The notes beneath the pieces are model-generated. The model had not been told where the DNA came from, did no database searches, and worked only from the letters and a program-made list of their open reading frames with translations. Shown piece by piece: positions 18,157 through 46,049 of a stretch of 64,000 nucleotides of DNA (the stretch's first letter is position 1; each line of letters starts with the position of its first letter). Made by a program: the position numbers and the translations under genes. The DNA comes from Spirochaetia bacterium (GTDB lineage: Bacteria; Spirochaetota; Spirochaetia; SZUA-6; Bin103), in contig OZ241863.1 of the NCBI GenBank assembly GCA_965203055.1, positions 3,776,001 to 3,840,000 of the forward strand, in the 5' to 3' direction.

Positions 18157-18513
18157 AAAGAAGATGCGTCGGAAGGACCTGTCCCTTCAGTTTAACTAAC
18201 CCAAGACACGTCCTCAGCCCGGCACAAGTTGAACGCCGCTCAGCTACAGTGTATGTTTACGAAGTGTCCGATACACGGATCGCGAATGGCTGAGCAATGG
18301 CGGAGGTTGGTATGTTGAACATACGGTCCAGGAGGTAGTACCTTTTCTGGTACCTGCTGCGTCGGGAGCGCTCTCTCCTGAGGAGAATGCTCTGGCAACG
18401 ACGGCAGACTATAGGCGCCGTTTACGGTGCCGTACTAAATGGATCGAACGTGCCTATTAAGGGTTTGTGCGTTCGATTGATTGTTTGCTGTTGCTAACTT
18501 CGAGGAGGATTGA

Positions 18514-18923: not shown

Positions 18924-18929
18924 GCGGCG

Positions 18930-21763: not shown

Positions 21764-21789
21764 CTGATCCTCCTATATCTATTTATTGC

Positions 21790-22380: not shown

Positions 22381-22405
22381 TCAACAATCGTCAGGAAATC
22401 ACGCG

Positions 22406-24142
22406 TCACAGGCTGTCGAGAACCCGTGCTCCATCGGTAAGCGACGCAACGATCTTACGAAATAGCTCCGACTTTGACGCAAGGAGGTCATCGATCTTTG
22501 ACTCGACTGTTCCTTGAGACCTCAAGCGATAGACATAGACCGCCCGCTTCTGACCAATACGGTTAACTCGATCTCGAGCTTGGGCGTTGACAGCAGGGTT
22601 CCACCATTCGTTCAAGAATACAACATGGTTTGCTGCAGTGAGCGTAAGCCCCTCGGCGGTTGCTCGGATAGAACACAGCAGTACAAACGGATCTGACGAT
22701 GATTGGAACGCCTTCACGATACTCGATCTTGCCGCGGAATCAGTCTGGCCAGTAATCATGGCAACCGAGCTATTCCCATACCGATTGGTGACTTTCCGAC
22801 GGACTATACGCAGAGGCTCTAGTCTCCACGAGAATACTACAACTTTCTCTCCGAGTTCTCGTATTGCTTCAGTGATTACTACTGCTCGGTCTACTTTTGA
22901 GCTTTTCTTGGTCACCGGATCGAAGTCGCATATGCTGCGTAGCTTGTTGAATAAACTGATCCATAAATCGACGGTCGTGATCGATCCACTATTTGCGCGT
23001 ACTCTATCATATTCACGCCTCTGTTCGACCGATAATGGAATCATCTCTGTTCGTTCTAGGACAGTCGGAAGTTCCTCCGAAATCACCGTCCGCGGCCGCC
23101 GCAAAACATAGCCTGCCGCAAGTGTCCTAAGCGATGCCGGAGACAGATAACGGTCGCGTAGTGACACTCTTTTTCGATCGAGTAAGTGAAGGATAGCGGT
23201 CAAGTCGCCTGCATGGTTCTCCAAAGGCGTGCCAGACAGACCCCATGCAAATCGAGGATACAACTGAAGTGATGAAGAATAGTTTAGCGAATATGGATTC
23301 TTGAGCTTGTGTATTTCATCGAAAATTACAAGATCGAAAGACCGAGGATCAATTCGGTTTCCGCGAATAGCCTCGTAATTCGTAATTGCTACGTGGCACT
23401 GCGCCTTTATCAGACTCCACGCTTTAGGCTCCACGCTAGAGTATAACACCACCGCACACAACTGTGGTGCCCATAATTTGATCTCCGCTTCCCAGACACC
23501 AAGCAGTGACTTTGGGCAAAGGACGAGAGCGCTGTTGATCTTTCCAGACCTCTTCATTTCTTCCAATGCGGCAATCGCCTGCAATGTTTTTCCTAGCCCC
23601 ATGTCATCAGCGAGTATAGCCGCTGACCGGCCGCTAAGCCACTTAACGCCATATCCTTGGTGTCTTTTGAACGGAATATTGTCGGGACGCTTCATGAATC
23701 GCCAACGCCATAGCTCACCGAGGTTGAAGTATCGACGGCGCTCTGCCCGCCGGGTGACTCGGATAACGGGTGGATCTGTTTGTGGAGATAGCAATGTCAC
23801 TGATTCTCCGGTGTCAATGCGTTGTACGAGATCTGGTCGGCTGCCCTCAATATACTCGATAAGGTCCAGTATATCAGATACAAGACACTCGAACGTATCA
23901 TCCGAAAAGGCTATTGATTCAGCGGGCGCAGACGTGGTAGATGTGGCGGACGATAACCGAATTGTTAGGCCAAGTGAGGTTCGCTCAAGCAGGTAGCGGA
24001 TGGTTGGGCGCTCAGATGCTTGGCGTATACCGCTATCTTGTTGGACGTGAACCATCGGTGTCGCATGTAAACTATTGGTTCTGTGGACGCTGGATATTAA
24101 AGGTGTGGGACCCTTTCGACCTCTGTCTGTTAAAGATGACAT
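22406..24142 (-). CDS. SNF2-family (SF2) helicase/translocase
   Basis: HQGYGVKWL, ILADDMGLGKTLQAI, DEIHKLKN, LSGTPLEN, EGLTLTAANHVVF and WWNPAVNAQARDRVNRIGQ. Start codon uncertain. Confidence 0.92.
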   Translation of the reverse strand: MSSLTDRGRKGPTPLISSVHRTNSLHATPMVHVQQDSGIRQASERPTIRYLLERTSLGLTIRLSSATSTTSAPAESIAFSDDTFECLVSDILDLIEYIEGSRPDLVQRIDTGESVTLLSPQTDPPVIRVTRRAERRRYFNLGELWRWRFMKRPDNIPFKRHQGYGVKWLSGRSAAILADDMGLGKTLQAIAALEEMKRSGKINSALVLCPKSLLGVWEAEIKLWAPQLCAVVLYSSVEPKAWSLIKAQCHVAITNYEAIRGNRIDPRSFDLVIFDEIHKLKNPYSLNYSSSLQLYPRFAWGLSGTPLENHAGDLTAILHLLDRKRVSLRDRYLSPASLRTLAAGYVLRRPRTVISEELPTVLERTEMIPLSVEQRREYDRVRANSGSITTVDLWISLFNKLRSICDFDPVTKKSSKVDRAVVITEAIRELGEKVVVFSWRLEPLRIVRRKVTNRYGNSSVAMITGQTDSAARSSIVKAFQSSSDPFVLLCSIRATAEGLTLTAANHVVFLNEWWNPAVNAQARDRVNRIGQKRAVYVYRLRSQGTVESKIDDLLASKSELFRKIVASLTDGARVLDSL

Positions 24143-24942
24143 ATGGCGCAACCCTCTGCCGCTTCGATAGACTGGAGAGGGAATTCTTCCAGCAGGGTCT
24201 CGACGTCGTCCAATGAGCGTCCTTGCACCCATGTATAACGCTTGGTCCCGTTGGGGCGCTCATACGACTTCGCACTCGTGAATAGAGTTGGGTGCTCGTG
24301 GCGCAGGCGCTGCCACTCGCCGATCTGCTGGTAGAAGCAGAAGTAGCAACCGGAGCGGGAACGCCAGCGGTAGTAGTCGGGCAGGCCGATGCCGGACGTT
24401 TCCAGGATTTCCTTGACTGTCCCAAGGTCGATGCCATCGTCCTTGAATGGGTACACAGGAACAATGTTGGGACGGTCGGAGAACACTGGTGGCTTCTTAG
24501 GGGTGTAACCCTGCCGGTCTTCGTCGGCCCGGATGCCGATGTAGCTGAAGGCGGTGTCGGAACCGACGTAGCGCTCGAATGGTTCGATCTTCAACTTGCG
24601 CGTGCACCAGCGAGCCTGCGGGCTCGGCAGGAAGCCAGAGTACATCTCGTTAAGCACGAAGTCAAACGCCTTTCGCGTCGGCTTGCGAGTGACGTTCATG
24701 TAGTCGAGCGCGTTGATCCGATGAATCGGCTTGCCGAGCAGCGCTTCCAGCCTGTCCAGGTAGTCGTAGGTCTCGGGCAGCTCCGCGTCAGTGTCGCAGA
24801 ATACGTATTCGCTCGGTAGCTGCGGGTAGGTCTGCGTCAGGTAGATCGCCAACGCGGCCGAGTCCTTGCCGCCGGACACCGGGACGACGTGGCGGATAGA
24901 TGGATCAGCAAGCGCTTCAAGCGCTTCGTGCAGGTTAGCCAT
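24130..24942 (-). CDS. sspD: PAPS-reductase-family protein, SspD-like (DNA phosphorothioation)
   Basis: PP-loop VSGGKDS, RWCTRKLKI, GIRADE, SRSGCYFCFYQ and C-terminal GCAICHL. Follows the DUF4007 and ATPase genes. Confidence 0.85.
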   Translation of the reverse strand: MANLHEALEALADPSIRHVVPVSGGKDSAALAIYLTQTYPQLPSEYVFCDTDAELPETYDYLDRLEALLGKPIHRINALDYMNVTRKPTRKAFDFVLNEMYSGFLPSPQARWCTRKLKIEPFERYVGSDTAFSYIGIRADEDRQGYTPKKPPVFSDRPNIVPVYPFKDDGIDLGTVKEILETSGIGLPDYYRWRSRSGCYFCFYQQIGEWQRLRHEHPTLFTSAKSYERPNGTKRYTWVQGRSLDDVETLLEEFPLQSIEAAEGCAICHL

Positions 24943-27900
24943 CGGAGCTGACCTCCTCGGTGATGTGCTCTAGTGCATCCTCGACAATGGTGCGCGTCCG
25001 GTCCGGGCCGGCAACGGTGGCGATTGCGCGCAACGACGCCTGCAGCCTGGAGGTGGCGATGTCCACGACGGCCTGGCTGCGAACGCCGTCGGCAGTCGTC
25101 GAAAGGCTGAGCACGGCATCCTCCACTCGGCGTATCACGGCGCCGAGCTCTCGCTCAAACACCACGATGGAACTATCCTCCCACCGATCGATGCGCTTAC
25201 CGACGAGCAACGCGGCCAGGGCGTCGGCCATTGCCCGATCGGTATCGTAGCTCATGCCCGTCCGCGTTATCAAGGCGCGTGCAATGCCATCCTTGACCTC
25301 CTTCGCCACGCTGCCCGGAAAGAACTCGGCCCATGCGCCCACGACCTGACGAAGCGTTGCGGCCTGCCTGTTCTGCGCTAGAAATGCCGAGCGGATGGCG
25401 CGTTCGGCTGCTTCGTAGTTCCAGTGCACGACGCCCTCCATCTCTGTCTTGCAGTCGCTCAGCGCGTGCAGCAGATCATCAATGCTCGACCCGTTCGGAT
25501 CAAGTGCGTCGGGCAAAGCATTGAACAGCAACCGATACGGATCGATAGCCGTGGCGGACATGAGTCGGCCGAACGCCCGCCCTCGGGGCGAAAGATACCG
25601 CGACGTAAGCGCGCTGTGCGGGAGGGTGCTGCGCCACCGCATCAGTGCATCATGGCAGCGTCGCACCGGGTCAGCCTCCACCGCGCCATCTTCCGTGAAA
25701 CCGAACAGCGCGGCAACCCGGTCAAGGAATGCCTTCTGATCAAAGGTCAGTTCAGGGACCAGCACCTGGTACTCGGCCGGGTGGGCGGCCATCGCTTCGA
25801 TAGTCGAGGGAAGCAGGTCATTGACGTATTCCCCATTGATCCGGGTGATGCTGATCGGACCGGGAAACGCCCGCAACGCCGCCGCAAGCAGAATCGGGAC
25901 AATCCCTTCCCGTACACCGTACGGAGCTGCGCTGAGCAGAGAAGTCAGATCCCCCAATGGCTTGGGGCGTCCCCCAGGGACGGTCAGGAAGTCCCGCAGG
26001 TGCTTCCAGACATCACGCAACCCAGGATCCGCCAACTCCTCGGGCGCGGCATAACGCCATACCGAGCCGCCGTCTTCCCGTCCACCGTCGGTTCGATACA
26101 GACCGGTCATGAGCAGCACCGTCCGGAACATCGACATGTCGGGCCGATACCCTTCCAACCCCAGGTTCTCAGTACCCGAACTCTCGAGAATACCCAGAAC
26201 CAGCTTCTTGCGCGCGTTGACGACAACCGGGCGAGGCCGACGCCGCACGATCATCTCATTCTTGATGCGCGGCGTACGCGGGTATAGTGTCCGCATGATC
26301 GTCGAGAGTAGCTGCCGCAACTCCTTGGCCGACGCGATCTCATGGAACCGATTACCCCATAGATACTCCGGTCCTTCGGCGGAAGGCTGAGACATCCGGG
26401 CGACTTGTTGGCTGAGATACCCCTGCGAGTCGTCGATCATCTGCGCAAGCTCCGACTCGACGAGCGGGTCCTCGGCTAGCAGGCCGGTGTCCTGCCGCAA
26501 CAGTTGCAGCGCGCGCACTTCAAGCGCGTTCTCGGCGATCGGAGCGACATACCGTGGCAGCGCGACGATTACGCCGGTCTCCGGCGTCTCCGCAACGAGG
26601 CGCTTTCGAACTTCCTCCGTCTCGTCGTACGAATCGGGAATGACCACGTACAGCGTGCCGTCTGGCGCTGACGGCGGGAGCGCTTCCGCCACGCTAGCCG
26701 CAGTAATGACGGCCCCGGCGGCGACATAGCAAGTATCGAAGGATCGTTCGATACCGTACTTGACGTTGTAGTCAATCGGCTTCCACGGTGCCAGAGGCGC
26801 TTCTGAGGTCAGAAACGAGACGTGATCGAATCGTGGCCGCAACCGATCCTTCTCCTGATCGAGCCGCCCGCGAAGATCAAGATCGGTACCGTGCCAGACG
26901 GATACGCTGTCTGCGTTGCGTCGATAGAGCAGCAGCTTGGCGTCGATCAAGCGTATCACGCTGTTGCTCGCCGTCCCGTCCTTCCGGTACCCGGACACTG
27001 CGTACTCAAGCAGCCGCCGGCTGACGCGCGAACGCTCCCCGATCAAGCCAAGTCCGAGCAGGCAGGCGCACTTGAGTGCCTTCTCGTCGATGCCGCCTAC
27101 ATTGTGCAGTGCCGCCTCGGTCTCCAGCCACGTGTGATAGCTGCCGCCCGGCAGGGTGTCCGCGCGCATCGCGTCGGAGAAGTAGTCGTACAGGCTGTCC
27201 GGCGAAACGGGAGCGGCCGCATCAAGCGAGTTGAGGTAGGTGAACAGGGTCCGTTCGTTCTGGGCCACTCGGGCGGAGACTCGCGGCAGCAGATACAGGG
27301 TCAGTGGCTCCAGCGGATAGGAGTCGGCCAACGTCCGCTCCATCTCTTGTTTCGAGAAATCGCTGAAAAGGCCCACTTCACGGCATCTCCGTACGCTGCG
27401 GTCCACCAAGTCCGACGAGGGAGCGTTCGAGGACCTGATTTGGCGCACGATTCGGCTGACCAACTGGTACAGCTCCTTGCTGTCGTCGACGAACTGGACC
27501 GTCTCGAACCGTCCCTCGATCTTCTTCCACTCCCGCTGTACCGTCACCGAGGTGTTGGCGGCGTAGCGTACCAGTCCCTGATGGAGCAGTAGCGCAAAGG
27601 TCGTCGCCGCCCGCTTGGTGCGCGCGCAGAATTCCGCGAGCGTCTGTACGTCGGACAAGTCCGCCGCCGTTCCGCGGAGGATTAGCTCCTCGAGATGGCG
27701 GCCGAATTCATCCCAGACGATCGCCAAGCGGTCAATCGGCTCCGGGCAGTAGCGATCGCGTACCGCACTGAGCAACGCGATGACGTCGTCCATCGAATCA
27801 GCGCGCCGGCGAGACACCAGTGCCGCCGCGTTCCTGTTGCCCGTCCGCCGAAGCGACGTGATGAGAGACTCCTTGATGGCGGTCGGGAGATGTCGCTGGA

Positions 27901-28339
27901 AGCCGGATAGGGCGACGGTGGCACCATGTCTACCGAACAGGGGCATCTGCTCGCTGCCGATACGCGACCTCAGTTCGTTTGCAAGTTCGCCGTCGACTCC
28001 GGCGAACCGTTCGGTGACCCGCTCCAACACCACGTCCGCCGGGCGCAGATTCTCGACGACCTGAATGAAGAACGCCGCGGTGAGAGACTTGCCGGTTCCG
28101 TACGGCGCTACTACGAAGTAGCTTGAAGACCCATCAGGCTGCAGCAGCCACGACCGCAACAGCCGGGCGCTCTTCGCCGTGGGATGAAAGTGAGCGATAC
28201 GCTGCGGTGCGGCGCCGTCGAGCGTAATGTTGATGGAGCGCAGGCGCATCGCCGTTTCCAGCATGGATTCATCCGCGGCGGGAACAGCGGTGCCGTTCTT
28301 CCGTATCTTGGTCAAACTCCTGGTGCTCATCTCAGGCAT
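24935..28339 (-). CDS. sspC: Large P-loop ATPase, SspC-like
   Basis: Walker A APYGTGKS, Walker B IVWDEFGRHLE, EWKKIEGRF, YPLEP and AQNERTLFTYL. Overlaps both neighbours. Confidence 0.8.
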   Translation of the reverse strand: MPEMSTRSLTKIRKNGTAVPAADESMLETAMRLRSINITLDGAAPQRIAHFHPTAKSARLLRSWLLQPDGSSSYFVVAPYGTGKSLTAAFFIQVVENLRPADVVLERVTERFAGVDGELANELRSRIGSEQMPLFGRHGATVALSGFQRHLPTAIKESLITSLRRTGNRNAAALVSRRRADSMDDVIALLSAVRDRYCPEPIDRLAIVWDEFGRHLEELILRGTAADLSDVQTLAEFCARTKRAATTFALLLHQGLVRYAANTSVTVQREWKKIEGRFETVQFVDDSKELYQLVSRIVRQIRSSNAPSSDLVDRSVRRCREVGLFSDFSKQEMERTLADSYPLEPLTLYLLPRVSARVAQNERTLFTYLNSLDAAAPVSPDSLYDYFSDAMRADTLPGGSYHTWLETEAALHNVGGIDEKALKCACLLGLGLIGERSRVSRRLLEYAVSGYRKDGTASNSVIRLIDAKLLLYRRNADSVSVWHGTDLDLRGRLDQEKDRLRPRFDHVSFLTSEAPLAPWKPIDYNVKYGIERSFDTCYVAAGAVITAASVAEALPPSAPDGTLYVVIPDSYDETEEVRKRLVAETPETGVIVALPRYVAPIAENALEVRALQLLRQDTGLLAEDPLVESELAQMIDDSQGYLSQQVARMSQPSAEGPEYLWGNRFHEIASAKELRQLLSTIMRTLYPRTPRIKNEMIVRRRPRPVVVNARKKLVLGILESSGTENLGLEGYRPDMSMFRTVLLMTGLYRTDGGREDGGSVWRYAAPEELADPGLRDVWKHLRDFLTVPGGRPKPLGDLTSLLSAAPYGVREGIVPILLAAALRAFPGPISITRINGEYVNDLLPSTIEAMAAHPAEYQVLVPELTFDQKAFLDRVAALFGFTEDGAVEADPVRRCHDALMRWRSTLPHSALTSRYLSPRGRAFGRLMSATAIDPYRLLFNALPDALDPNGSSIDDLLHALSDCKTEMEGVVHWNYEAAERAIRSAFLAQNRQAATLRQVVGAWAEFFPGSVAKEVKDGIARALITRTGMSYDTDRAMADALAALLVGKRIDRWEDSSIVVFERELGAVIRRVEDAVLSLSTTADGVRSQAVVDIATSRLQASLRAIATVAGPDRTRTIVEDALEHITEEVSSDG

Positions 28340-29255
28340 GCACCAACTCCCTGGCAACGACGTCGAAGTGCCGCGCCAGCAGCCTCGGGGCCGGCGTACG
28401 GTCGAAGCGAAGCTGTCGGTCGCCGGCAAGGCCGCTCATGGCAAGTGGCGCGTCGGCGCCGTTCGCTTCCAAGTCCACCAGATGTTCAAAGAGCGCGTCG
28501 GACGACAGCGCCAGTACCTGTGCCGGGCCACTCTCCATCCGCTGCAGGTCGTGCAGCGTCACGTCGACGGTGCCGGCGCTCTCACCCATCATCAGGTCCG
28601 GAGTCTGCAAGGCGTACAACAATACCTGCGAAGGTATGGACTTGCGACGACGGTTCAGTTCGTAGTAGCCGGATGCGCGGAAGTGACGGATGATCCTCAG
28701 CTCCTGAAACGGACAGTCGATTTCCTCCTCCGGGTCCTTACGCCGGTAGGGCACTTCGACCGCATAGCTTCCCAGGAAGCAGCTCACGTCGCGCTCCAAC
28801 GTCTTACGCGTGGCCGAGCGCCGCGAGCTCACGCGATCATGCTGTTCGAGCTGGGCCACTACCGTGGCTCGTTCGAATCGGCTTGATGCATAGTGGTTGA
28901 AGAACCAGTGCCACGTTGCCGCGTGAGCCGGGGTGCGCACCAATTTGATATGCAGGAACCACCACGTGCCGGGATCGAGAAACCATGGATCGTGGCGCGC
29001 GACCACCTCGCCAAGCTCAGAGACCGCCAAACGGGGTTGCCCGTCGCGACGGCCGCGGCCTCGGCGCTCGATCTTTTCTGCCAAGCCGGTGGCCAGCAGC
29101 CAGTGCTCGATGGACTTCGCCATGTTTCGGCCCACTCCGAGAATGTCCGCGACGTAGGGGTTGTCGAACTTGCTCGGATCCTCCCGGAGCAGCGCGAGCC
29201 CCTTTGCCAGCCAGCCCTCGCGGATGAAGAAGGTCTGATGTCCGCCAAACCGCAT
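28332..29255 (-). CDS. sspB: DUF4007 family protein, SspB-like
   Basis: MRFGGHQTFFIREGWLAKG, LGVGRNMAKSIEHWL, DPWFLDPGTWWFLH and CPFQELRII. Confidence 0.88.
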   Translation of the reverse strand: MRFGGHQTFFIREGWLAKGLALLREDPSKFDNPYVADILGVGRNMAKSIEHWLLATGLAEKIERRGRGRRDGQPRLAVSELGEVVARHDPWFLDPGTWWFLHIKLVRTPAHAATWHWFFNHYASSRFERATVVAQLEQHDRVSSRRSATRKTLERDVSCFLGSYAVEVPYRRKDPEEEIDCPFQELRIIRHFRASGYYELNRRRKSIPSQVLLYALQTPDLMMGESAGTVDVTLHDLQRMESGPAQVLALSSDALFEHLVDLEANGADAPLAMSGLAGDRQLRFDRTPAPRLLARHFDVVARELVHA

Positions 29256-29256
29256 G

Positions 29257-30411
29257 CTACGCCGCTCCAATACGGTGCAGACGAGACACCAAGTCCCGGT
29301 AGGCGTCGATGACGCAACGCGCTCCGCGTTCGGCTTCTTCCGGCGTGTTGAGAACACCGAACGAGAATCGGAGCGAAGCGTATGCCTCCGTCTCCGAGAG
29401 GCCCATCGCGGTAAGCACGTGCGACGGCGTGGGCCGCGCGGTCGTACACGCGGAGCTCTGCGAGCAGTAGAGCTCGCGGTCGTCCAGGGCGGCGATGAGC
29501 ATCGTGCCGTCGATGTCGGGAAAGCGCAGATTCGAGGTATTCCCCACTCGGTGATGACGGTCACCGTTGACCGTCACCCCCGGTTCGGCGGCAAGGACCG
29601 CCTGCTCGAAGGTGTCGCGGCATGCCGTCAGCAAGGCGGTGACGCCGGTCAGGTCCCGCACTCGGTCCGCCGCGGCGGTGCCGAATCCGACGGCGCCGAT
29701 CAGATTTTCGGTGCCGCCGCGCAGACCCTGTTCCTGATCCCCCCCGCCGACGAGCGGCTGCAGCACCGACGGGTCGCGGGCGTACAGGGCGCCGCAGCCG
29801 GTCGGGCCGTGTATCTTGTGCGCGGTCACGCTCAACAGATCCGGGCCATGCTGCCGGCCGACGTCGACCGGGAGCTTGCCGAGCGCCTGCGCGGCGTCGC
29901 AGTGGTACAGGGCGCCGGCTTGATGACTGATCTCCGCTACCGCCTCCACCGGTTGGACGACGCCGGTTTCGTTGTTCACGGACTGCACGGACACGAGCGC
30001 GGTGTGCGCGTTGACCATATCGGCCAATCGATCAAGGTCGATGCGGCCGGATTTCGCTACCGGCGCTTCATGCACCACGTAGCCGCGCCGGCTGAGCAGC
30101 GCGGCGTTTGCCGTCACGGATGAGTGTTCGACCGCGCTGACGATGATCTCGTCGCGCTCCCCGCGGGTCTGCGCCGCGGCGACGGCCATGGCGTTCGCCT
30201 CCGACCCGCTCGCCACGAACAAGACGCATTCGGATCGCGCCCCGAGTGCCGCGGCCACCTGATCGCGCGCCTTCTCAAGCAGGGCGCGCGCCTCATGACC
30301 GAGGCGGTGCGGGCTTGACGGGTTGCCAACCGGACCGGCGATCAGCGATTCGACGCGGGCTCGCACGGCGGGGCTCAAGAACGTGGTAGCGTTGTTGTCG
30401 AGGTAGATCAT
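29257..30411 (-). CDS. sspA: Cysteine desulfurase (IscS/DndA/SspA-like)
   Basis: MIYLDNNATT, GNPSS.H, NNETGV, HCDAAQ, PLP lysine in HKIHGP, RGGTEN and catalytic Cys in SQSSAC. Confidence 0.9.
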   Translation of the reverse strand: MIYLDNNATTFLSPAVRARVESLIAGPVGNPSSPHRLGHEARALLEKARDQVAAALGARSECVLFVASGSEANAMAVAAAQTRGERDEIIVSAVEHSSVTANAALLSRRGYVVHEAPVAKSGRIDLDRLADMVNAHTALVSVQSVNNETGVVQPVEAVAEISHQAGALYHCDAAQALGKLPVDVGRQHGPDLLSVTAHKIHGPTGCGALYARDPSVLQPLVGGGDQEQGLRGGTENLIGAVGFGTAAADRVRDLTGVTALLTACRDTFEQAVLAAEPGVTVNGDRHHRVGNTSNLRFPDIDGTMLIAALDDRELYCSQSSACTTARPTPSHVLTAMGLSETEAYASLRFSFGVLNTPEEAERGARCVIDAYRDLVSRLHRIGAA

Positions 30412-30472
30412 CGTTTCATCGCCCGGCCAACCAAGACGGTATAGACCGTACCACATCGGTTTCTGGAAGTCA

Positions 30473-31927
30473 CTACGCCGGCCTTCCAGTAGACGCCGCC
30501 CACGCTCGCGGCCGCAGGTTGCGCTCGCGCACGATCAGGCCAAACGGTTCGTTATGCATCAGGACCCTCCTGCCCAATACAACGGCCCGTTCGTCCGTGC
30601 TGCCTTCATCGAAGCCGAGAATCTGCTTCCCGATGAGCAGTTCCGGCTCCGCGTTCGTCGAGTGGTCGAAGAATCGCACCTGCTGACTCTGCAGGTCGAT
30701 CTTCACCCGCGACCTCAGGCGCGGCCGCGCCTCCCGCACGTCGCTGAGCGAGAACAGGGAGAGGCGCGGCGATGTCTTGTGGATCTTGATCACGTCCGCG
30801 CGGTCGAGGTCGCCTGAGAACAACTCGCCAAGGCGCGCGTAGATCTGCAACGTGGGGTCAAGGGACGTCAGATCGCGCCGGGCGACGAAGTAGCCGTCGG
30901 CCGTATTCACCCCGACCGGAGCGTCCTCGCATAGCCGCGCCACCCGCTCCGCATCGCCCGCCGCGAACAGGTGCTCGTCGCTCAATTGCTTGAGGTGGCT
31001 GTAACTGCGGAAGTAGTAGCGAATGTCGTAGCGGGACGTGGCCGGCAGGTCGCGCAGCCGCGGCACCCCGCGGAACCGGCAGATCGCCATGAACGTCAGG
31101 AACTGATTGGTATGGCGGCGCCGTTGCTCCGCGAGCTGATCCTGCGCCAGCGCGCCGGAAGCTGCCTCCCACAGATCGGCAGGTGCAAGACCATACTCTG
31201 CGGCGACCGGCAGCGCGGCGGTTTCGCCGGCCGCGGGTGGACGAGCTCGGGCCGCCGCGAAGTCGACGTACGCCGACCACTCCTCCGCGTGCTCCGTCTG
31301 AAAGGCCGACATGAGTGCGGTTCGCAGCACGCGCTTGCGCTCCCGAGGGATGCCGCGGACGAGCGGCACGGAACGCTGAATGCGATTGAGCAGGAAGGCA
31401 TGGGCATCGGCGCTCTGTCTGAAGATCAGAAAGACGCCCGCTTCAAGCGGGATCGGCGCGACGCCGAGGACCTCTTCAAGGTACCGTCCCGCCTCTTCCT
31501 GGTGGTAGTACTTCTGAAAGGTCTGACGCGACGTAAGTAATCCGTCCCCATAGGGTTGCGCTTCCCCGGAATAGGTCGCGGAGCCGACCAGGACGGCGAC
31601 GCACAGGCATCCACCGGCGAGATCGAACGCCCGCCGCAGGGCGTCGGCCCGTTCGGCCGGCCGCTCGATGACGTTGAGCACGTACCCCAGGTTGACCACT
31701 GCCGCGCCGCGCCGCGCTTCGTCCGGCCGGTGCGCCGGGTCCCAGCCGTGCGCGTCGTAGCCGAGCGACCGCAGGAAGCGCACGTCGTCGCCGAGGCCGC
31801 AGCCGTAGTCGAAGAAGGTGTGTTCCGGCGTGAGGACGCCGTTGCCGATGAGCAGTTGCACGGGCCGGGACAGGTCCGATCGCGCTATCGCGGTCCGGTC
31901 ACGCCGTACTTCCACCGAGCTACCCAC
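30473..31927 (-). CDS. DNA phosphorothioation-associated putative methyltransferase (TIGR04096-like), catalytic part
   Basis: RTAIARSDLSRPV, SAM motif FDYGCGLGDD, GWDP, VVNLGYVLNVIE and DGLLTSRQTFQKYY. Confidence 0.85.
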   Translation of the reverse strand: MGSSVEVRRDRTAIARSDLSRPVQLLIGNGVLTPEHTFFDYGCGLGDDVRFLRSLGYDAHGWDPAHRPDEARRGAAVVNLGYVLNVIERPAERADALRRAFDLAGGCLCVAVLVGSATYSGEAQPYGDGLLTSRQTFQKYYHQEEAGRYLEEVLGVAPIPLEAGVFLIFRQSADAHAFLLNRIQRSVPLVRGIPRERKRVLRTALMSAFQTEHAEEWSAYVDFAAARARPPAAGETAALPVAAEYGLAPADLWEAASGALAQDQLAEQRRRHTNQFLTFMAICRFRGVPRLRDLPATSRYDIRYYFRSYSHLKQLSDEHLFAAGDAERVARLCEDAPVGVNTADGYFVARRDLTSLDPTLQIYARLGELFSGDLDRADVIKIHKTSPRLSLFSLSDVREARPRLRSRVKIDLQSQQVRFFDHSTNAEPELLIGKQILGFDEGSTDERAVVLGRRVLMHNEPFGLIVRERNLRPRAWAASTGRPA

Positions 31928-32511: not shown

Positions 32512-32970
32512 TCAGCCGCCTCCGTCCAGCCGATGCGCGGACGATGGCGGACCGTCAAGTGCCAGGACGGTCAGCAATTCGTCTGCCGTCACGATAGACA
32601 CCGGCGCTGCCCGAAAGCCGTCATGGTCGCGCGTGACGAGGTAATCGGCGCCGCATCGACGTGCGCAGCAGAGTTGAACGGCGTCCTCGAAGTCGGCGCC
32701 GTTCGCGGCCAACGCCTCATCAAGGAGCCGAGTATCCACCTCGACGGGGCGAAATACCGATCGGATCATCTGCAGTGATCGATAGGCCGGATCGGCGCCA
32801 CCGTGCCTGCGTGCAATGTAGAACACGTTGTTGAAGCTGATGGCAGACACGAAACCGTGGTGAGCGCCGGTCTCCACCAGTGTCCATACCCGAGCCGACG
32901 ATCGGTAGAACGGCTCCCGCTGCAACAGCACGTCGAGCAGAACATTCGTATCCAGGAAGAGCCGGAGAAT
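32512..32970 (-). CDS. PIN-domain (VapC-like) toxin
   Basis: The frame extends upstream of the tracked ORF as ILRLFLDTNVLLDVL; also DFEDAVQ and LVTRD. No ATG/GTG found before the DTN motif (ATT at 32970). Confidence 0.85.
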   Translation of the reverse strand: MLRLFLDTNVLLDVLLQREPFYRSSARVWTLVETGAHHGFVSAISFNNVFYIARRHGGADPAYRSLQMIRSVFRPVEVDTRLLDEALAANGADFEDAVQLCCARRCGADYLVTRDHDGFRAAPVSIVTADELLTVLALDGPPSSAHRLDGGG

Positions 32971-40306: not shown

Positions 40307-40418
40307 GGCCGCCGTAACCTACCACCGATCGGCGCCGGCGAGCAAACGAACCCCGGAGGGGACCGGCGCGGCGACCGATTGACAGCCCCCGCCATCGAAT
40401 CCACCGTTGGGGCCCATC

Positions 40419-41033
40419 ATGGAACGGGTCTTCATCTACTGGGACAACTCGAACATCTTCATCAGCGCGCAACAGGTAGCGATCGATCGCGAAGGCGAGT
40501 CGGCCCGCTACCGGATGCGCATCCATTTTCAGAATCTGTTGAAGTTGGCATGCGCGGACCGTCCGATCGAGCATGCCATCGCCGTCGGCTCCATTCCCCC
40601 CGAGTTGAGACACGTCTGGAATCGAATGGAAAACGAAGGGGTGACCGTGCAACTCCTCGAACGCGGCGAGATGCACCACCGGGAACAAGGAGTCGATCAG
40701 GCGCTGCAGACGGCGATGTTGCGCGACGCCTTCGACTACAACGGCAATCCCGGCATAGCGGTGATGCTCACCGGTGACGGCAGCGGGTTCGATGACGGCG
40801 TGGGCTTTCACGCCGACCTCGAACGCATGCGCCGGCGCGGGTGGCGCGTCGAGGTTCTGTCGTGGCGGCATAGTTGCAACCGCGGCATGCGCCGCTGGGC
40901 GGAGCAGAACGGCATCTTCGTCGCGCTGGACGACTACTACCAGAGCGTGACGTTCCTGGAGCCGCCGGCGCCCGGCCGGCCGCTGGCGGAGCCGCGCGCG
41001 GCGCGGCCGGTCGACCTCAGCCGGCGTTCTTGA
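40419..41033 (+). CDS. NYN (LabA/DUF88) domain protein
   Basis: FIYWDNSNI, EQGVDQAL, LTGDG and GWRVEVLSW. Confidence 0.85.
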   Translation: MERVFIYWDNSNIFISAQQVAIDREGESARYRMRIHFQNLLKLACADRPIEHAIAVGSIPPELRHVWNRMENEGVTVQLLERGEMHHREQGVDQALQTAMLRDAFDYNGNPGIAVMLTGDGSGFDDGVGFHADLERMRRRGWRVEVLSWRHSCNRGMRRWAEQNGIFVALDDYYQSVTFLEPPAPGRPLAEPRAARPVDLSRRS

Positions 41034-41738: not shown

Positions 41739-41933
41739 CTAGCCAGTAGGTGGCTGCTCCCCTACACCCTGTTCGAGGGTGATCTGTCCACGCCGCACGG
41801 TCAGCTCGTCCTGCATGAACGAGTTGTCCTCGACGTACTTACCGATCAGGGACGCCTCCGTTTCCGCCTCATCCTCTACGACGACCGCCGCGATAAGCAG
41901 CAGCCCCATTGACGATGATCTTCTTTCACCATC
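41739..41933 (-). pseudogene. Degenerate small secreted-protein gene (array member)
   Basis: Strong RBS GGAGGAGGAG. Removing two single-A insertions gives MKKIIVMGLLLIAAVV..., a signal-peptide-like start. Confidence 0.4.
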
Positions 41934-41960
41934 TCCTCCTCCGGGAAGTGGTCCCGGTAT

Positions 41961-42003
41961 GCCTCTCGCGGGGAATCGAACCCGCCGTGCTCCAAGAGGA
42001 GGC
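41961..42003 (-). ncRNA. Degenerate tRNA-like mini element (copy C)
   Basis: Minus strand GCCTC CTC-TTG-GAG CACG GCGGG TTCGATT CCCCGC GA GAGGC, followed by the leader ATACCGGGACCACTTCCCGG shared with copy B. Confidence 0.5.
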
Positions 42004-42081
42004 TGAAATCACCCTTGATCCCATTCCCATATCAAAGTGGCCTTGTGCTCTACTCCGGTGTGCAGGAATCGAACCCCGCTT

Positions 42082-42597
42082 TCAGCCCCAGCATCCCGTG
42101 ACCGCCTTAGCGGCCGTCGCCGTCGTTAGCCAACTCGACTCGCTCCAATCTTCATTCCAACGTTCTGGGGTGTTCTCCCAGTCTCGCTTGTCAGCTAGTA
42201 TTGCCTTCGGTTCATACGAACCTCTCGTATCAGACGTTGGTCCAACGTTGATGGTGTCCGGTTTGGTAGCAGAGAAGAAGCTATGATTCCTTGAGAAGTC
42301 AAATTCCTCCTCATCTACGCTCTCTCCGGCGTCAAACTGAAGCATGAAATCCACCACTGTACCATTCACCAAAACGAGACCTCTGGACTTGCCGTCTGGT
42401 CTGTCCCAAGATATGATCCAAACGACATCAGAGTTGTACGCATCGTCACCGGATCTTGCAGCTATCTCCTTACCGTTCACTCTTTCGATCTTCGGGTTAA
42501 ATACCCCTGCGTCCTTCAACGCCAGCTCGATTGGTCCCTGACCTGGGGTCCGTGGACTTCCCGCTTCGATGTGTCTCCTCAGCACCTTTACGTTCAC
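42082..42597 (-). CDS. Hypothetical protein (array member downstream of tRNA-Pro)
   Basis: GTG at 42597 with AGGAGGAG RBS; open for 171 codons; no recognised family. Confidence 0.65.
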   Translation of the reverse strand: MNVKVLRRHIEAGSPRTPGQGPIELALKDAGVFNPKIERVNGKEIAARSGDDAYNSDVVWIISWDRPDGKSRGLVLVNGTVVDFMLQFDAGESVDEEEFDFSRNHSFFSATKPDTINVGPTSDTRGSYEPKAILADKRDWENTPERWNEDWSESSWLTTATAAKAVTGCWG

Positions 42598-42649
42598 TTC
42601 AGGTCTCCTCCTGTGGCCATTATTAATCACCTGATGGCCAATCTGGTAG

Positions 42650-42720
42650 TCAGGATAGGGGGAGTCGAACCCCGATCTCCAGCTCCCAAAGCTGGCGCCA
42701 TACCGCTGGGCTATACCCCG
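42650..42720 (-). tRNA. tRNA-Pro (UGG), atypical
   Basis: CGGGGTA TA GCCCAGCGGTATGGC G CCAGC TT-TGG-GA GCTGG AGATC GGGG TTCGACT CCCCC TATCCTG A. T stem is one G short, there are two G-U acceptor pairs, and the 3' end reads ACTACCA. Confidence 0.8.
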
Positions 42721-42725
42721 ATTGA

Positions 42726-42743
42726 CCGCCCCCGAAGGGGCGG
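42726..42743 (-). other. GC hairpin with cUUCGg tetraloop just upstream of tRNA-Pro
   Basis: CCGCCCC-TTCG-GGGGCGG; no U-tract, so not a classical intrinsic terminator. Confidence 0.55.
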
Positions 42744-42766
42744 GGTCGGTCGATCACTTCCCTTGG

Positions 42767-43273
42767 TTACCTTCCGTTACGATCCATCCATCCATCGAGA
42801 TCGTATGTGACTTTCGAGAACCGGCGAGATGTCTTGTTTATCTCGAAGCTCTCATATACTTCCAACGTCAATTCCGCCCACCTCACGAATGAAAGAGTGC
42901 ATCTATGATGCCCGCAGTTGTTTGGCTCATGGTAAATTTCGCCATTCTCGTCGACATCTGCGGCCCATGTGATCCGGAAGGTGTCGTCTTCTTGGAAGGT
43001 TACCACCCTCTCGTCGTAGCGGCCTTGGCATTCATCTCCATGACCTATCACGAAGAGGTCCCCCTCCCTACTCCAGGCAACCAGACCGTCTTCTGACACC
43101 TCAAGCAGAATATGCTCGCCAAGGAGAGACCATGTCTCCCATGTCCCATAGGTGAATCCAGGGAACTTGATGTCTTCGTGACACTCATACCCTCGGACGA
43201 TCTCTTCCTGCGACCACACCATACCTGCAGCGATCATTGCCACTGCCACAACCAATACGATCAGACGCTTCAC
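42767..43273 (-). CDS. Hypothetical secreted protein (array member)
   Basis: GTG at 43273 with AAGGAGG RBS. Signal peptide MKRLIVLVVAVAMIAAGMVWS, four cysteines, C-terminal VTYDLDGW. Confidence 0.75.
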   Translation of the reverse strand: MKRLIVLVVAVAMIAAGMVWSQEEIVRGYECHEDIKFPGFTYGTWETWSLLGEHILLEVSEDGLVAWSREGDLFVIGHGDECQGRYDERVVTFQEDDTFRITWAADVDENGEIYHEPNNCGHHRCTLSFVRWAELTLEVYESFEINKTSRRFSKVTYDLDGWMDRNGR

Positions 43274-43304
43274 ACGCCCTCCTTTCCAGGAAGTGACCCG
43301 GTAT

Positions 43305-43350
43305 CGAAGCCCGGGGGATCGAACCCCGGCGCGGCAAACCATGCGCTTCA
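43305..43350 (-). ncRNA. 46-nt anticodon-less tRNA-like element (copy B)
   Basis: TGAAGC GCA-TGGTT-TGC CGCG CCGGGG TTCGATC CCCCGG GCTTCG: 6-bp outer stem, 3-bp GG-loop hairpin and 6-bp T arm. Confidence 0.65.
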
Positions 43351-43382
43351 GAGTCCCGTCCGAAGGCGGCGAAGGGGGAGGC

Positions 43383-44742
43383 CATAAGCGCTAACTTATT
43401 GTAGGTCACTCGAAGTTACTCCCAAAGCTGAGGCAGACGCCGCCGAGGCGGCTCGGCCAACGCCCGCGAGATGGCGGGCCAGTCGTCGACCAAGTGGGCC
43501 AGCGGCAACGCAGGTTCGATGGTGCGGGTGAGCTGGTTAAGCACGAACTTGAATTCACGCCACGCGCTGCGTGGTCGCTTTTGGCGCCAACTCGTATCCC
43601 CAGGGGGAAATAGCGCTGGCATGGCGGATCAGCTTATCGACCAGGAGCGCGACCAGCAGTTTGCCATACAGCCATGCCTTCGCGCTGTCATCGTCGTATT
43701 TCGGCAGATGGCCCAACTGGGCTAGCGATTTGAACCGCTTGAACACCAACTCCACCTGCCAGCGAATGCGATACCACTCCAGAATCTGGGCGGCACTGAA
43801 CGTGGCGGCGGGAAAGGTAGTGAACACGATTACGTACTCGGCGAAGGTCAGGGTGTCCGGCTGCGCCTGCTTGCTCTTGCGGGCTGCATCCTGGAGCACC
43901 TTGCGGTGCGCCAGCTTGATTGCGGCGGCGGATTTGCGGAGCGCGCAGACCCGTCCCCCCACGCGCTCCGCAGCGCCGACCATGACTTGGGTGGTCCATG
44001 ACTTGGCCGCGCCGGCACGCTGCACCGAGGTGACTGCGGCCAGCAAATCAAACGGCTCGCCCTGGCCGGTTTGCAGCCGCAGGGCTCCGGTATTGATGCG
44101 CACGATGAGTTGACCGCCGGCATCCGCCACATAGCCGATGCCGCGCGCCGTCGAATAGCCGCGATCGGCCAGGACATGGTCCCCGGCGCGGACCGGGAAC
44201 TGGGCCAACGATTCGCCAGTGCCCGGCCCCTCGGTGGGCGTGAGCTTGAAAAAGTCGCACGCCAGCGACGGCAGGCACACACTATAGTGGATGCGCCACA
44301 GCGTGCCGGTCTTGCCGGGTTCCTTGACGGTAGTCGCATCAAAGGCCCTGACTTGAAAGCCGCCGCCGGTGGCCACCGCGATGCCGTGTTCCTGAAACAG
44401 TCTGACACACAACGCGTACAACCACTCCTTTGACTTCCTCAGGCGCTTGAGCAGCGCCACATCGGATAGATCGGCGAGTTCGGCCTGCCGCGCTCGCACC
44501 ACGGTTTCCCGCAAGGAGTGCCCGCAGCCAAGATGGATCAACAGGGTACGCAGCAGATTGTCAACCGATTTGTCCTTGCGCAGCCCCTTCAGCGCCCCGG
44601 TGTCGTCCGCCAACTCCCGCCAATCACTCGGCAGGAACGACACCAGCAGTTCCCAGTCCTCCTTCACCCGCTTGCCCTCCTCCCAGTCGCGTAGCGCACG
44701 ATACGCTATTCAGGAAGTAGAGTCAACAAGTTAGCGCTTATG
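43383..44742 (-). mobile_element. IS4-family insertion sequence, IS186-like
   Basis: Terminal inverted repeats CATAAGCGCTAACTT(A/G)TTG at both ends; 1360 bp; G-rich flanks; single DDE transposase. Confidence 0.92.
43555..44667 (-). CDS. IS4-family DDE transposase
   Basis: LSDVALLKRL, FDATTV, LADRGYS and the YREK signature WYRIRWQVELVFKRFKS. Confidence 0.95.
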   Translation of the reverse strand: MKEDWELLVSFLPSDWRELADDTGALKGLRKDKSVDNLLRTLLIHLGCGHSLRETVVRARQAELADLSDVALLKRLRKSKEWLYALCVRLFQEHGIAVATGGGFQVRAFDATTVKEPGKTGTLWRIHYSVCLPSLACDFFKLTPTEGPGTGESLAQFPVRAGDHVLADRGYSTARGIGYVADAGGQLIVRINTGALRLQTGQGEPFDLLAAVTSVQRAGAAKSWTTQVMVGAAERVGGRVCALRKSAAAIKLAHRKVLQDAARKSKQAQPDTLTFAEYVIVFTTFPAATFSAAQILEWYRIRWQVELVFKRFKSLAQLGHLPKYDDDSAKAWLYGKLLVALLVDKLIRHASAISPWGYELAPKATTQRVA

Positions 44743-44755
44743 GGGGGGGGGGGGC

Positions 44756-45393
44756 TCAGACGGCGGCTATTCCCCCAGACTGGCGAGAGGGTGTACGCAT
44801 CTCCCGGTTCGTCATCCTGCGGAACCGTCCACTCCTCTCCTTCTCCAGGCGATTCGACACTTCGACCATGATGCCATGAACCGTGTCGGGCCACTCCACG
44901 GCGAACGCTTCGGGCTTGGCGGAGGCGGTATCCCTGCGGAAGTAGATCGCTCCAACCCCTCCATCCATCTGCCGGTGCTGAAGACTCACGATCTTGTTGA
45001 AGCGTACCCGGAATGTGCTTCCGCTCCTGACATCATTCGAGGCGAAGTAAACATGCTTGGTGATAACAGCCAACACGCCCGGTCGCTGAACCGGACAGGA
45101 GTATCTACTGTCCTTCCCTTGAGACTCCTACCGGTACGACACTCCCTTCATCACGCGAAGGCTGACTCCCGCGAACTGGCGCGGTACTCGCGTTCGGTCT
45201 TTCCGTACATGGCTTCGCACGCCCACACCAGACTGTCGGACTTCAGAATCTGAACGGAAGGGCTGGGCAACGGACAGTTGGCAAACTCCATCTGAGACGT
45301 GTTCGAGTATGTCCTCCACAATCCTTCGGTTCGAGTGCTTCTGTTCTTCCGCTTCTTGTCGCCGGCGACGGACCTCTTGCCGTTTCTAGTCAA
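44756..45393 (-). pseudogene. Fragmented hypothetical gene
   Basis: Overlapping pieces in different frames (GVSLRVMKGVSYR*, then GVLAVITKHVYFAS...FRVRFNKIVSL...RRDTASAKPEAF) read as one disrupted protein. Confidence 0.55.
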
Positions 45394-45540
45394 CCTCTCG
45401 CTGCCTTTGGGTCACCGCTCTCCGCTTCTCTAGTCTAGTGCCGATACCGGTCATACGCGCGGGCCGGGTGAAATCCATGCGGAGAGATGAGAGGTGTTCA
45501 GAAGCTACAGGCGGAATCGGGCCACCTCGAAGGCACCGGG

Positions 45541-45840
45541 CTATGCCGTAAAATCCCGCCCGAAGGCGAGGAGTCGATCAGTTGGTTCCTTGACGAGTCT
45601 CAAGGACCCTATTCCTGCCATCCTACGAGCAGTCACGTCAGCAATACCTTCAGGGTAAAGCTCAACAGCAGCCGGACTCCACACCTTCAATTCCCCATCC
45701 TCAACAAAATGAGCCGCGCCGGCTTCTTCAGACACTACTATGCTCATAGCAGGATGATTGATACATGGAATAATAGTACACCTCCGTACGCATTTTCCAA
45801 ACTCGTTGAGTCCCTTGTACGAAACTACCTTCTCTCCCAC
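45541..45840 (-). CDS. Small hypothetical protein (array member)
   Basis: GTG with GAAGGAG RBS directly after tRNA-like copy A; 99 aa. Confidence 0.6.
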   Translation of the reverse strand: MGEKVVSYKGLNEFGKCVRRCTIIPCINHPAMSIVVSEEAGAAHFVEDGELKVWSPAAVELYPEGIADVTARRMAGIGSLRLVKEPTDRLLAFGRDFTA

Positions 45841-45873
45841 TTACTGGTCTCCTTCACCGCCAGTTGCGGCTTG

Positions 45874-45919
45874 ACCAGCGGGCGGAATCGAACCGCCCGT
45901 CACGCCACCAGGCGCTGGC
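45874..45919 (-). ncRNA. 46-nt anticodon-less tRNA-like element (copy A)
   Basis: GCCAGC GCC-TGGT-GGC GTGAC GGGCGG TTCGATT CCGCCC GCTGGT: same geometry as copy B with different stem sequences. Confidence 0.65.
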
Positions 45920-45958
45920 TCGAAGGGAGGGGGACGAGCCCCTCCCGGTCGTCGTCGA

Positions 45959-46033
45959 TCAGCACTTCTGGTATGCTTCCCGGAAGCCGTCCAGGTCGAA
46001 CACCAGCTTCTTCGGCGTCTGGTGGTCCTCCAT
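45959..46033 (-). pseudogene. 3' remnant of a truncated gene at the island edge
   Basis: MEDHQTPKKLVFDLDGFREAYQKC*; C-terminus resembles KVTYDLDGW of 42767..43273. Confidence 0.4.
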
Positions 46034-46049
46034 GTCGCCAGCTAACCGG

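Follow-up and report, generated by a model that had tools for sequence, protein, structure and literature searches.

Transfer RNAs (tRNAs) lying in polycistronic mitochondrial RNA mark cleavage between their neighbours, and mascRNA is released from a longer transcript by RNase P and RNase Z. Plant mitochondria have t-elements, described in the relevant passages of PMC1920247 (Forner et al., 2007) as tRNA-like structures found by a screen for GGTTCRANYCC; their ends coincide with mapped mRNA ends, sometimes carry an added C or CCA, and are ascribed there to RNase P, RNase Z and exonuclease trimming to the mature 3' end. For Haloferax, the part of PMC4946936 that deals with processing reports cleavage in vivo, by RNase P and tRNase Z, of tRNA-like elements on either side of an RNA. 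The present study concerns a 64-kb stretch of a Spirochaetia bacterium chromosome (contig OZ241863.1, positions 3,776,001 to 3,840,000; the whole stretch is termed the window), and within it a 4.3-kb low-GC foreign island (41739..46049; edges approximate, the right one within ~40 nt), whose minus strand carries a tRNA-Pro gene and five shortened tRNA-like elements, termed mimics, set among small orphan genes. A reading made earlier from the DNA without database searches (the sequence-only reading) had described this arrangement as an array of genes punctuated by a tRNA and by anticodon-less tRNA mimics. That observation is confirmed here; the array is a lone and in part decayed example of what may be a hitherto undescribed form of tRNA-like punctuation in bacteria or phages.

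Across the 64 kb, the T-arm motif GGTTCGAHYCC occurs five times, always on the minus strand and within 41972-45894 (at 41972, 42065, 42661, 43315 and 45884); 0.29 matches are expected, and five were reached in none of 100 shuffles. Four of the five matches lie outside tRNA-Pro, and a further element, D, has a mutated T loop. Every match falls inside the island, on the strand of its genes. Read along the minus strand, the array consists of six co-oriented intergenic modules: A, D, B, Pro, C1 and C2. The layout is the same in the best copies, where a GC hairpin is followed after 5 nt by the tRNA or mimic, then after 3-4 nt by a small hairpin, a Shine-Dalgarno sequence and a start codon. Four units had been described previously (A, B, tRNA-Pro and C), and all are at the places and on the strand then given; the count rises to six with the resolution of C into C1 and C2 and the addition of D. 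The description of the elements as tRNA-derived, lacking an anticodon arm and co-oriented with the open reading frames (ORFs) is borne out, as is their fixed slot between an upstream GC hairpin and a downstream hairpin with its ribosome-binding site (RBS).

The loops of the GC hairpins are CUCG in A, UUCG in D, B and Pro, and UAAG in C1, so that the cUUCGg form, earlier counted twice, is confirmed and occurs three times. The spacing from this hairpin to the acceptor is 5 nt in A, B and tRNA-Pro and 8 nt in D and C1. Downstream, the acceptor end of A, B and C2 is separated by 3, 3 and 4 nt, respectively, from the next hairpin and by 33, 31 and 29 nt from the start codon. The downstream hairpin of well-kept modules has 4-6 bp and precedes a strong Shine-Dalgarno sequence and a GTG start; C2 has ATG with GTG adjacent. 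In A, D and Pro the word TGATCGAC stands 3-7 nt ahead of the GC hairpin; being common in the genome (23 occurrences in the window), it is informative by position, not by count. None of the four promoter-like and none of the six terminator-like sites predicted lies at a module hairpin, and the module hairpins have no U tail. Similarity among the modules is mosaic: B and C2 resemble each other over the whole stretch between T arm and RBS, downstream hairpin included (z 10.7), B and D have their upstream hairpin in common (repeat D20, 93% over 15 nt; z 4.3), and D resembles A in linker and T arm (repeat D17). Judged by these likenesses, the modules are paralogues beyond the T arm alone.

Modules A and B are the best-preserved of those with a mimic. 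The upstream part of A (45925..45961, minus strand, as for all modules) consists of TGATCGAC at 45961-45954 and a GC hairpin with a CUCG loop at 45946-45925. Mimic A (45874..45919) has a 6-bp acceptor-like stem, a 15-nt linker and a 6-bp T stem closed by the loop TTCGATT; the linker forms a small hairpin with a UGGU loop, and there is no anticodon arm. The downstream part (45838..45870) comprises a hairpin at 45870-45857, the Shine-Dalgarno sequence GAAGGAG and a GTG at 45840. In module B, a GC hairpin with a cUUCGg loop and one mismatch (43356..43369) ends 5 nt before mimic B (43305..43350), which again has a 6-bp acceptor, a 15-nt linker and a 6-bp T stem, with the loop TTCGATC; its downstream part (43271..43301) holds a hairpin at 43301-43286, the Shine-Dalgarno sequence AAGGAGG and a GTG at 43273.

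The two mimics align without gaps over 46 nt, and each combines a 7-nt T loop with 12 stacked pairs, equal to the 7+5 of a tRNA. Their acceptor and T stems are kept through compensatory changes and their cores share a three-helix fold, in support of the sequence-only reading. Between A and B, both partners have changed in three of the six T-stem pairs and in two to three of the six acceptor pairs, with no pair lost; the linkers differ at about half of their positions, and all 12 stacked pairs are kept in each. For the isolated cores of both, the minimum free energy (MFE) structure is identical to the centroid and consists of acceptor, small hairpin (UGGU or UGGUU loop) and T arm meeting at a three-helix junction. 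In the alignment of all five mimics, 83% of cells are paired, against 67% in shuffles (reached by 2 of 500); both partners vary in six of the 12 pairs (equalled in 14 of 500 shuffles), and the covariation score is 0.317 against 0.126 in shuffles (2 of 500). When the partner column was slid by 1-3 columns as a control, at most 62% of the cells paired.

The fourth module is built around a real tRNA. tRNA-Pro(TGG), at 42649..42720 on the minus strand, is called by ARAGORN and matches the Rfam tRNA model with 53.1 bits; by ARAGORN, and in agreement by Rfam at its gathering score, it is the sole full tRNA in the window. Its D stem and its T stem each contain one non-standard pair. Upstream of it (42726..42756) are TGATCGAC at 42756-42749 and a cUUCGg GC hairpin at 42743-42726, which gave a PhotoRC-I hairpin match in the Rfam scan and ends 5 nt before the tRNA; downstream (42595..42640) are a 7-bp hairpin at 42640-42614, the Shine-Dalgarno sequence AGGAGGAG and a GTG at 42597. 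tRNA-Pro thus holds the same slot, with the same 5-nt spacing, as the mimics; no other internal evidence speaks so strongly for mimics taking the place of a tRNA. A, B, C1 and C2 differ from tRNA-Pro in both T stem and acceptor.

The other three modules are degenerate to differing degrees. Module D (45502..45580) begins with TGATCGAC at 45580-45573 and a cUUCGg hairpin at 45569-45556; its core (45547-45502) has an A-like linker and a 6-bp T stem (45527-45509) with the loop CCCGATT, and its acceptor is unpaired. It overlaps the end of ORF99, the ORF of cassette A. Module C1 (42055..42115) consists of a GC hairpin at 42115-42100 and a short-linker mimic at 42091-42055, in which the acceptor is paired at five of six positions, the T stem at three of six, and the linker measures 6-7 nt; no gene comes after it. 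In module C2 (41927..41999), the mimic (41999-41962; acceptor of 6-7 bp, T stem paired at four of six positions, linker of 6-7 nt) is followed by a hairpin at 41957-41941, the Shine-Dalgarno sequence GGAGGAGGAG and an ATG at 41932 or GTG at 41929. C1 and C2 are 93 nt apart, with an 'empty' unit between them. The 5' T-stem half of C1 pairs at six of six positions with the 3' half of C2, and the 5' half of C2 at five of six with the 3' half of C1; the acceptor strands of the two pair within their own element, the T-stem halves across. An origin of C1 and C2 as products of a crossover in the T loop was considered and rejected, since it agrees with the T-stem halves but not with the pairing of the acceptors. 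A seventh element before ORF106, where a hairpin loop UUCAGCGA lies near 45090, was likewise rejected; it resembles no module significantly and is missed by R1, a covariance model built from the five mimic copies.

The island lies between the pfkB stop (46050) on one side and the upstream region of the DUF4202 gene on the other, and its GC content, 0.50-0.62 against 0.69-0.80 in the flanks, is lower than that of its surroundings, as had been noted from the sequence. The window is part of a high-GC bacterial chromosome and encodes AddAB-like helicase-nucleases, IleRS and ABC transporters. A profile search of genome contigs with a DUF4202 alignment provided 80 related loci, 1.22 Mb in total, of which the eight closest (67-82% identity) come from metagenome-assembled genomes of Spirochaetia; a 96%-identical DUF4202 relative is also on record (P0004). 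Nine of these loci were examined (L001-L008 and L020), and at none of them is there a tRNA or a T-arm motif. The order DUF4340, glyoxalase, AP endonuclease, pfkB, DUF4202, MatE is conserved. pfkB was detected upstream of DUF4202 in six of the nine, at a distance of ~90 nt in L002, ~130 nt in L007, ~0.9 kb in L004 and L005, and ~1.9 kb in L006 and L001. In L001 (2400-10000) pfkB is fragmented, and low-GC patches separate the pieces. Inspection of the sequences places a conserved opposite-strand gene in the longer gaps of L004 and L006, and a low-GC insert with a lipoprotein-like ORF at 8290-9150 of L006. These longer and varied gaps mark the pfkB-DUF4202 junction as plastic. The array itself is in none of the nine relatives; among the loci compared, it occurs in this genome alone. 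No match to the island proteins (n=7) was found in any of the 80 loci. The island is horizontally acquired DNA inserted between pfkB and DUF4202, and the claims that the array is foreign and its genes orphan stand, on low GC, absence from nine relatives and lack of gene families.

The genes of the island, all on the minus strand, are small. At its left edge a 24-codon mini-ORF (45959..46033; read from the sequence) ends in a TGA stop that is also the start of the TGATCGAC of module A. Cassette A contains ORF99 (45541..45840; 99 codons), an orphan of doubtful coding status for which no homologue was found. ORF106 (44756..45076; 106 codons) is an orphan without a Shine-Dalgarno sequence and is possibly decayed. 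ORF168 (42767..43273; 168 codons), an orphan with a hydrophobic, signal-like N-terminus, matched only itself among 5.8 billion proteins. The last gene (41739..41932) is probably broken: an 18-codon ORF (41932-41876) runs from the RBS-proximal ATG and overlaps a 56-codon ORF (41909-41739) in another frame. The six island ORFs tested belong to no Pfam, NCBIfam or PADLOC family, and PHROGs provided no family for island ORFs except ORF171.

Of the cassette genes, ORF171 (42082..42597; 171 codons) alone has relatives: among 1.84 billion representatives, it is matched by a near-identical fragment and by a protein of 181 residues with 51% identity (P0003); the alignment with the latter extends to residue 153, after which ORF171 continues for 18 further codons into module C1. 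It has a weak match to PHROG 19191 (unknown function, E 1.3e-4), and its nearest Atlas clusters are viral, with scores of 0.85-0.86 that serve as leads only. A tblastn search of 50,697 phage records with ORF171 and its relative returned nothing. The AlphaFold predicted local distance difference test (pLDDT) is 37 for ORF168 and 41 for ORF171.

Between ORF106 and module B lies an IS4-family element (43382..44743, minus strand) with 20-nt inverted repeats that are 95% complementary. Its transposase (43555-44667; Pfam DDE_Tnp_1; NCBIfam transpos_IS4_1, 140 bits against a cutoff of 115) is the only island ORF product with a Pfam or NCBIfam family. The element sits in an 11-C tract, 12 nt upstream of the GC hairpin of B, and the sequences on either side of it, CCCCCCCC and CCTCCCCC, resemble an 8-nt target duplication. 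A promoter-like site at 43425-43398 is directed out of it towards module B. No recombinase or integrase was found among ~50 window ORFs scanned with Pfam.

Standard RNA searches leave the mimics uncalled. By canonical-tRNA standards only tRNA-Pro is recognised, A, B, D, C1 and C2 not being called; neither ARAGORN nor Rfam at its gathering score reports a mimic in the window, nor do they report there a transfer-messenger RNA (tmRNA) or its tRNA-like domain. The mimics thus match no known Rfam family at that score. Against phage records (blastn, distant mode), tRNA-Pro is the only part of the island to be matched, among the matches listed (20 of 22 records), and both of two plasmid records match at tRNA-Pro only; modules A and B alone, at E up to 10, gave only noise with phages (E >= 1). 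The covariance model R1 found nothing in the window beyond its training copies (next best 14.7 bits) and nothing in the 80 DUF4202 loci (best 18.7 bits, E 0.24), and its best hit in the locus of Brevundimonas phage Gurke (ON529850.1, L081), at 24.9 bits, falls on the 3' portion of a genuine tRNA-Pro. A covariance model of the mimics, as proposed in the sequence-only reading, thus yielded no further copy in window, loci or phage locus. Phage and plasmid collections, the 80 DUF4202 loci and the rest of the window contain no second locus, and the array thus stands without an orthologue for comparison. A link between mimic A and tRNA-Sec, based on a weak Rfam match and on Chloroflexota tRNA-SeC, was rejected, alignment showing no relation. 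Among 58 loci scanned, tRNA-SeC lies ~1.3-3.4 kb upstream of DUF4202, on the same strand, in eight Chloroflexota loci (L032, L033, L035, L036, L039, L040, L045 and L050).

Other parts of the window have features of their own. A second low-GC island (18400-30500, both strands, GC 0.50-0.64) contains a complete SspABCD-type phosphorothioation defence set (SspA 29257-30456; SspB 28332-29564; SspC 24935-28429; SspD 24130-24942), together with a ZorD/DpdE-like SNF2 helicase (22406-24232) and a DndB-like protein (20393-21763); the window-wide motif scan found no T-arm motif in it. Adjoining it is an ORF with a PIN_3 domain (32512-32931, minus strand; E 4e-13) that may be the toxin of a toxin-antitoxin pair. 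A gene with an NYN domain, a PIN-like nuclease (40407-41033, plus strand), lies between MatE and DUF4202 and overlaps the 3' end of DUF4202 by 17 nt; it has no counterpart in the nine related loci and no solved relative by sequence. The NYN domain has the nuclease fold of protein-only RNase P.

The explanation that we favour, tentatively and at a little less than an even chance, is that the island is a fragment of a phage-type region of tRNAs and orphan ORFs (ORFans), in which duplicated tRNA processing modules have shrunk to t-element-like substrates of RNase P and RNase Z. We infer a donor, transcription of the array as one unit, and cleavage. The probable donor is a virus, or a mobile element of another kind, that had a tRNA/ORFan region; its array would have been transcribed as one RNA. 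Its tRNA module would have been duplicated to other gene boundaries and the copies reduced to the half of the tRNA that RNase P and RNase Z read, leaving putative mini-tRNAs of 38-46 nt that keep the 12-bp acceptor/T-stem stack and a canonical T loop, have lost the anticodon arm and, in A and B, also retain the small GG-loop hairpin. RNase P would cut the mimic on its 5' side and leave the upstream mRNA ending in a protective hairpin; RNase Z or an equivalent would cut on the 3' side and let the downstream mRNA begin with a protective hairpin and RBS. This is the mode of action proposed or shown for plant mitochondrial t-elements. In its present host the array is decaying, with three imperfect mimics of five, the inserted IS4 element and at least one broken gene. 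A bolder form of the idea, in our view rather unlikely, is that the array is a bacterial or phage counterpart of organellar punctuation, with mini-tRNAs derived from the tRNA-Pro module acting as portable RNase P/Z cassettes (hairpin, mimic, hairpin, RBS) that would convert a promoterless series of ORFans into separately stabilised mRNAs and, being repeated, would also let genes shuffle from one boundary to another. The interpretation given in the sequence-only reading is upheld in part: the tRNA-derived, co-oriented, foreign and orphan character of the array stands, whereas no recombinase was found among the window ORFs scanned and no second locus in the collections, DUF4202 loci and window searched.

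Several points weigh against processing as the explanation. A single locus is known, and the covariation therefore rests on five paralogues; the structure was moreover derived from the same sequences that were scored. The folding z-scores of the cores are weak (A -2.0, B -0.95). The MFE structure of the full module B is a different fold (z -0.04), and in full-module A the modelled partner of the acceptor 3' strand (CUGGUC) is GACCAG, immediately downstream of the Shine-Dalgarno sequence (45879-45842), in place of the acceptor 5' strand; such a pairing could couple processing to translation or could count against the mini-tRNA fold. The acceptor opens with a G-U pair in A and a U-G pair in B, and CCA is not encoded. 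D, C1 and C2 are imperfect, with no gene after C1 and none convincing after D; ORF99 is without any homologue and ORF106 without an RBS. Under relaxed Rfam thresholds, the best matches are non-significant, tRNA-Sec for A (19.4 bits, E 2.9) and mascRNA for B (18.6 bits, E 3.6). The signs of phage origin are themselves weak (PHROG E 1.3e-4; Atlas 0.85-0.86; nothing by tblastn).

A decayed phage tRNA region, the alternative that the sequence-only reading had itself offered, is a strong rival and probably the origin in either case. Taken as the whole explanation, it would make the mimics neutral relics of a phage or mobile tRNA cluster, functionless tRNA pseudogenes with the middle deleted and their geometry inherited from tRNA modules that had been duplicated. 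Such relics would account for the three imperfect mimics of five and the mutated T loop of D, for the insertion of an IS and at least one broken or doubtful ORF, and for the absence of the island from relatives and of conserved copies from the searches made; real phage clusters hold sub-threshold tRNA-like elements of 28-32 bits, and tRNA gene fragments are common in prokaryote genomes according to the sections of PMC9897764 on this point. Mimics A and B fit relics poorly, however: they keep 12 of 12 stacked pairs despite a linker that differs at about half its positions, and both have lost the same arm and kept the same length, whereas random decay should break stems rather than cleanly delete one arm twice. 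We consider this rival unlikely, while giving it real weight. Less probable by a clear step are modules that serve recombination, intergenic repeats that would shuffle ORFan cassettes by homologous exchange, in a PeSL-like manner or site-specifically in the T loop, their RNA shape being secondary. No integrase or recombinase is found among the window ORFs scanned, the shared identity is short (an 11-nt core) and poor for homologous exchange, no promoter-like site lies at the modules, and the acceptors of C1 and C2 pair within each element, contradicting a simple T-loop crossover. These objections have to be set against the mosaic likeness (B to C2 in the 3' half, B to D in the hairpin, D to A in linker and T arm), the 'empty' 93-nt unit between C1 and C2, the cross-complementarity of their T-stem halves (6/6 and 5/6, against 3/6 and 4/6 within) and the PeSL precedent as set out in parts of PMC2839356.

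Two further readings fare worse. The mimics might act on their own, as decoys or substrates for the CCA-adding enzyme, acceptor-end toxins, defence nucleases or a synthetase; they do keep the acceptor/T-arm half that such enzymes read, and the orphan genes have a weak viral flavour, yet Pfam, PHROGs, NCBIfam and PADLOC tie no cassette protein to tRNA biology, and the fixed placement ahead of each RBS fits a role in cis better, so that we rate a stand-alone role very improbable. The least probable of all is that the mimics are integration scars, tRNA 3' ends duplicated (attL/attR) by successive integrative elements. tRNA 3' fragments are the usual signature of island integration in the portions of PMC9897764 that treat it, and here a foreign island occupies a junction that varies among relatives. 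Nevertheless, the nine related loci have no tRNAs, the fragments are unlike tRNA-Pro and one another in T stem and acceptor, each comes with a complementary 5' acceptor strand of its own, not to be expected from duplication of a 3' end, and no integrase is found among the window ORFs scanned; scars are therefore largely excluded.

Should the mimics indeed be cut by RNase P and RNase Z, as the processing explanation holds, they would be the first natural example, in a bacterium or phage, of an mRNA array punctuated by tRNA-like elements that lack an anticodon, a principle so far seen in organelles, in eukaryotic long non-coding RNAs (lncRNAs) and in engineered use in archaea. They would suggest how phage tRNA regions express and stabilise tiny orphan genes, would give annotators a reason to seek T-arm motifs discarded by tRNA finders, and would provide a compact natural part, about 110 nt long, for processed operons. 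If they are relics instead, the island would be a clear example of the decay of tRNA modules after transfer to a high-GC genome.

The sequence-only reading had held that no bacterial system with this layout is described. In the excerpts of the literature that were searched we found no bacterial or phage array of this kind either, but the principle behind it is known from t-elements, and phage tRNA clusters likewise mix small ORFs of one orientation with tRNAs and with uncalled tRNA-like RNAs. The jumbo phage Gurke has 24 tRNAs and small hypothetical coding sequences, all co-oriented. Outside these 24, six T-arm motifs of Gurke lie in elements that are unannotated and missed by ARAGORN (L081 8440-8538, 9420-9637, 9739-9825, 10687-10758, 14425-14505 and 14515-14612); Rfam scores among them are tmRNA-like 31.7, tRNA 31.1 and tRNA-Sec-like 29.7 and 28.1 bits, and several end in CCA. 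The island resembles this phage in combining tRNA, uncalled tRNA-like RNAs and small ORFs in one orientation, with one tRNA and five mimics all on the minus strand. The extra elements of Gurke, however, are full-length (80-98 nt) odd tRNAs or tmRNA-like RNAs, whereas the island mimics are 46-nt and armless, and in the island neither a phage hallmark gene nor, save at tRNA-Pro, similarity to phage DNA was found.

PeSL cassettes of T4-type phages, in the passages of PMC2839356 that describe them, are repeated intergenic stem-loops that flank ORFans in plastic regions and are mosaic, as the modules are. There, PeSL combine promoter and terminator; the island modules have no promoter-like site, no U tail and a tRNA-derived core, and classification as a PeSL-type regulatory cassette was rejected with no promoter or terminator prediction at their hairpins. 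Integration-derived tRNA fragments, in the relevant sections of PMC9897764, are likewise partial and tRNA-like, lie in foreign DNA and are missed or miscalled by finders, but they copy the 3' end of a neighbouring tRNA, mark island ends and have an integrase adjacent, none of which is so here. As to integron cassettes, no integrase was found among the window ORFs scanned; the repeated element is tRNA-derived, and its core, by eye, is unlike GTTRRRY.

With bacterial tRNA-mRNA co-transcripts such as secG-leuU, as presented in part of PMC2241853, the mimics share the use, proposed for them here, of a tRNA shape in polycistronic RNA as a cleavage signal; in those co-transcripts, as in mitochondrial punctuation, the tRNAs are complete and functional, whereas five of the six units of the island cannot decode. 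mascRNA (RF01684) and the mimics are alike in being small three-helix tRNA-like folds without a working anticodon, the context of mascRNA being a eukaryotic nuclear lncRNA; membership of B in the mascRNA-menRNA family was rejected at 18.6 bits against a gathering score of 42.5 (E 3.6). The nearest relatives in kind are the t-elements. Four of the five T-arm motif matches of the window lie outside a canonical tRNA, and a closing acceptor-like stem is present in A, B and C2 (6-7 bp), paired at five of six positions in C1 and unpaired in D. As portrayed in the corresponding parts of PMC1920247, t-elements are organellar and scattered singly, whereas the island, known from sequence alone, has an array of hairpin-mimic-hairpin-RBS modules in a bacterial host or mobile element; common to both are a conserved T arm, an acceptor-like stem, a departure from the canonical cloverleaf, the lack of a decoding role and a position beside coding regions.

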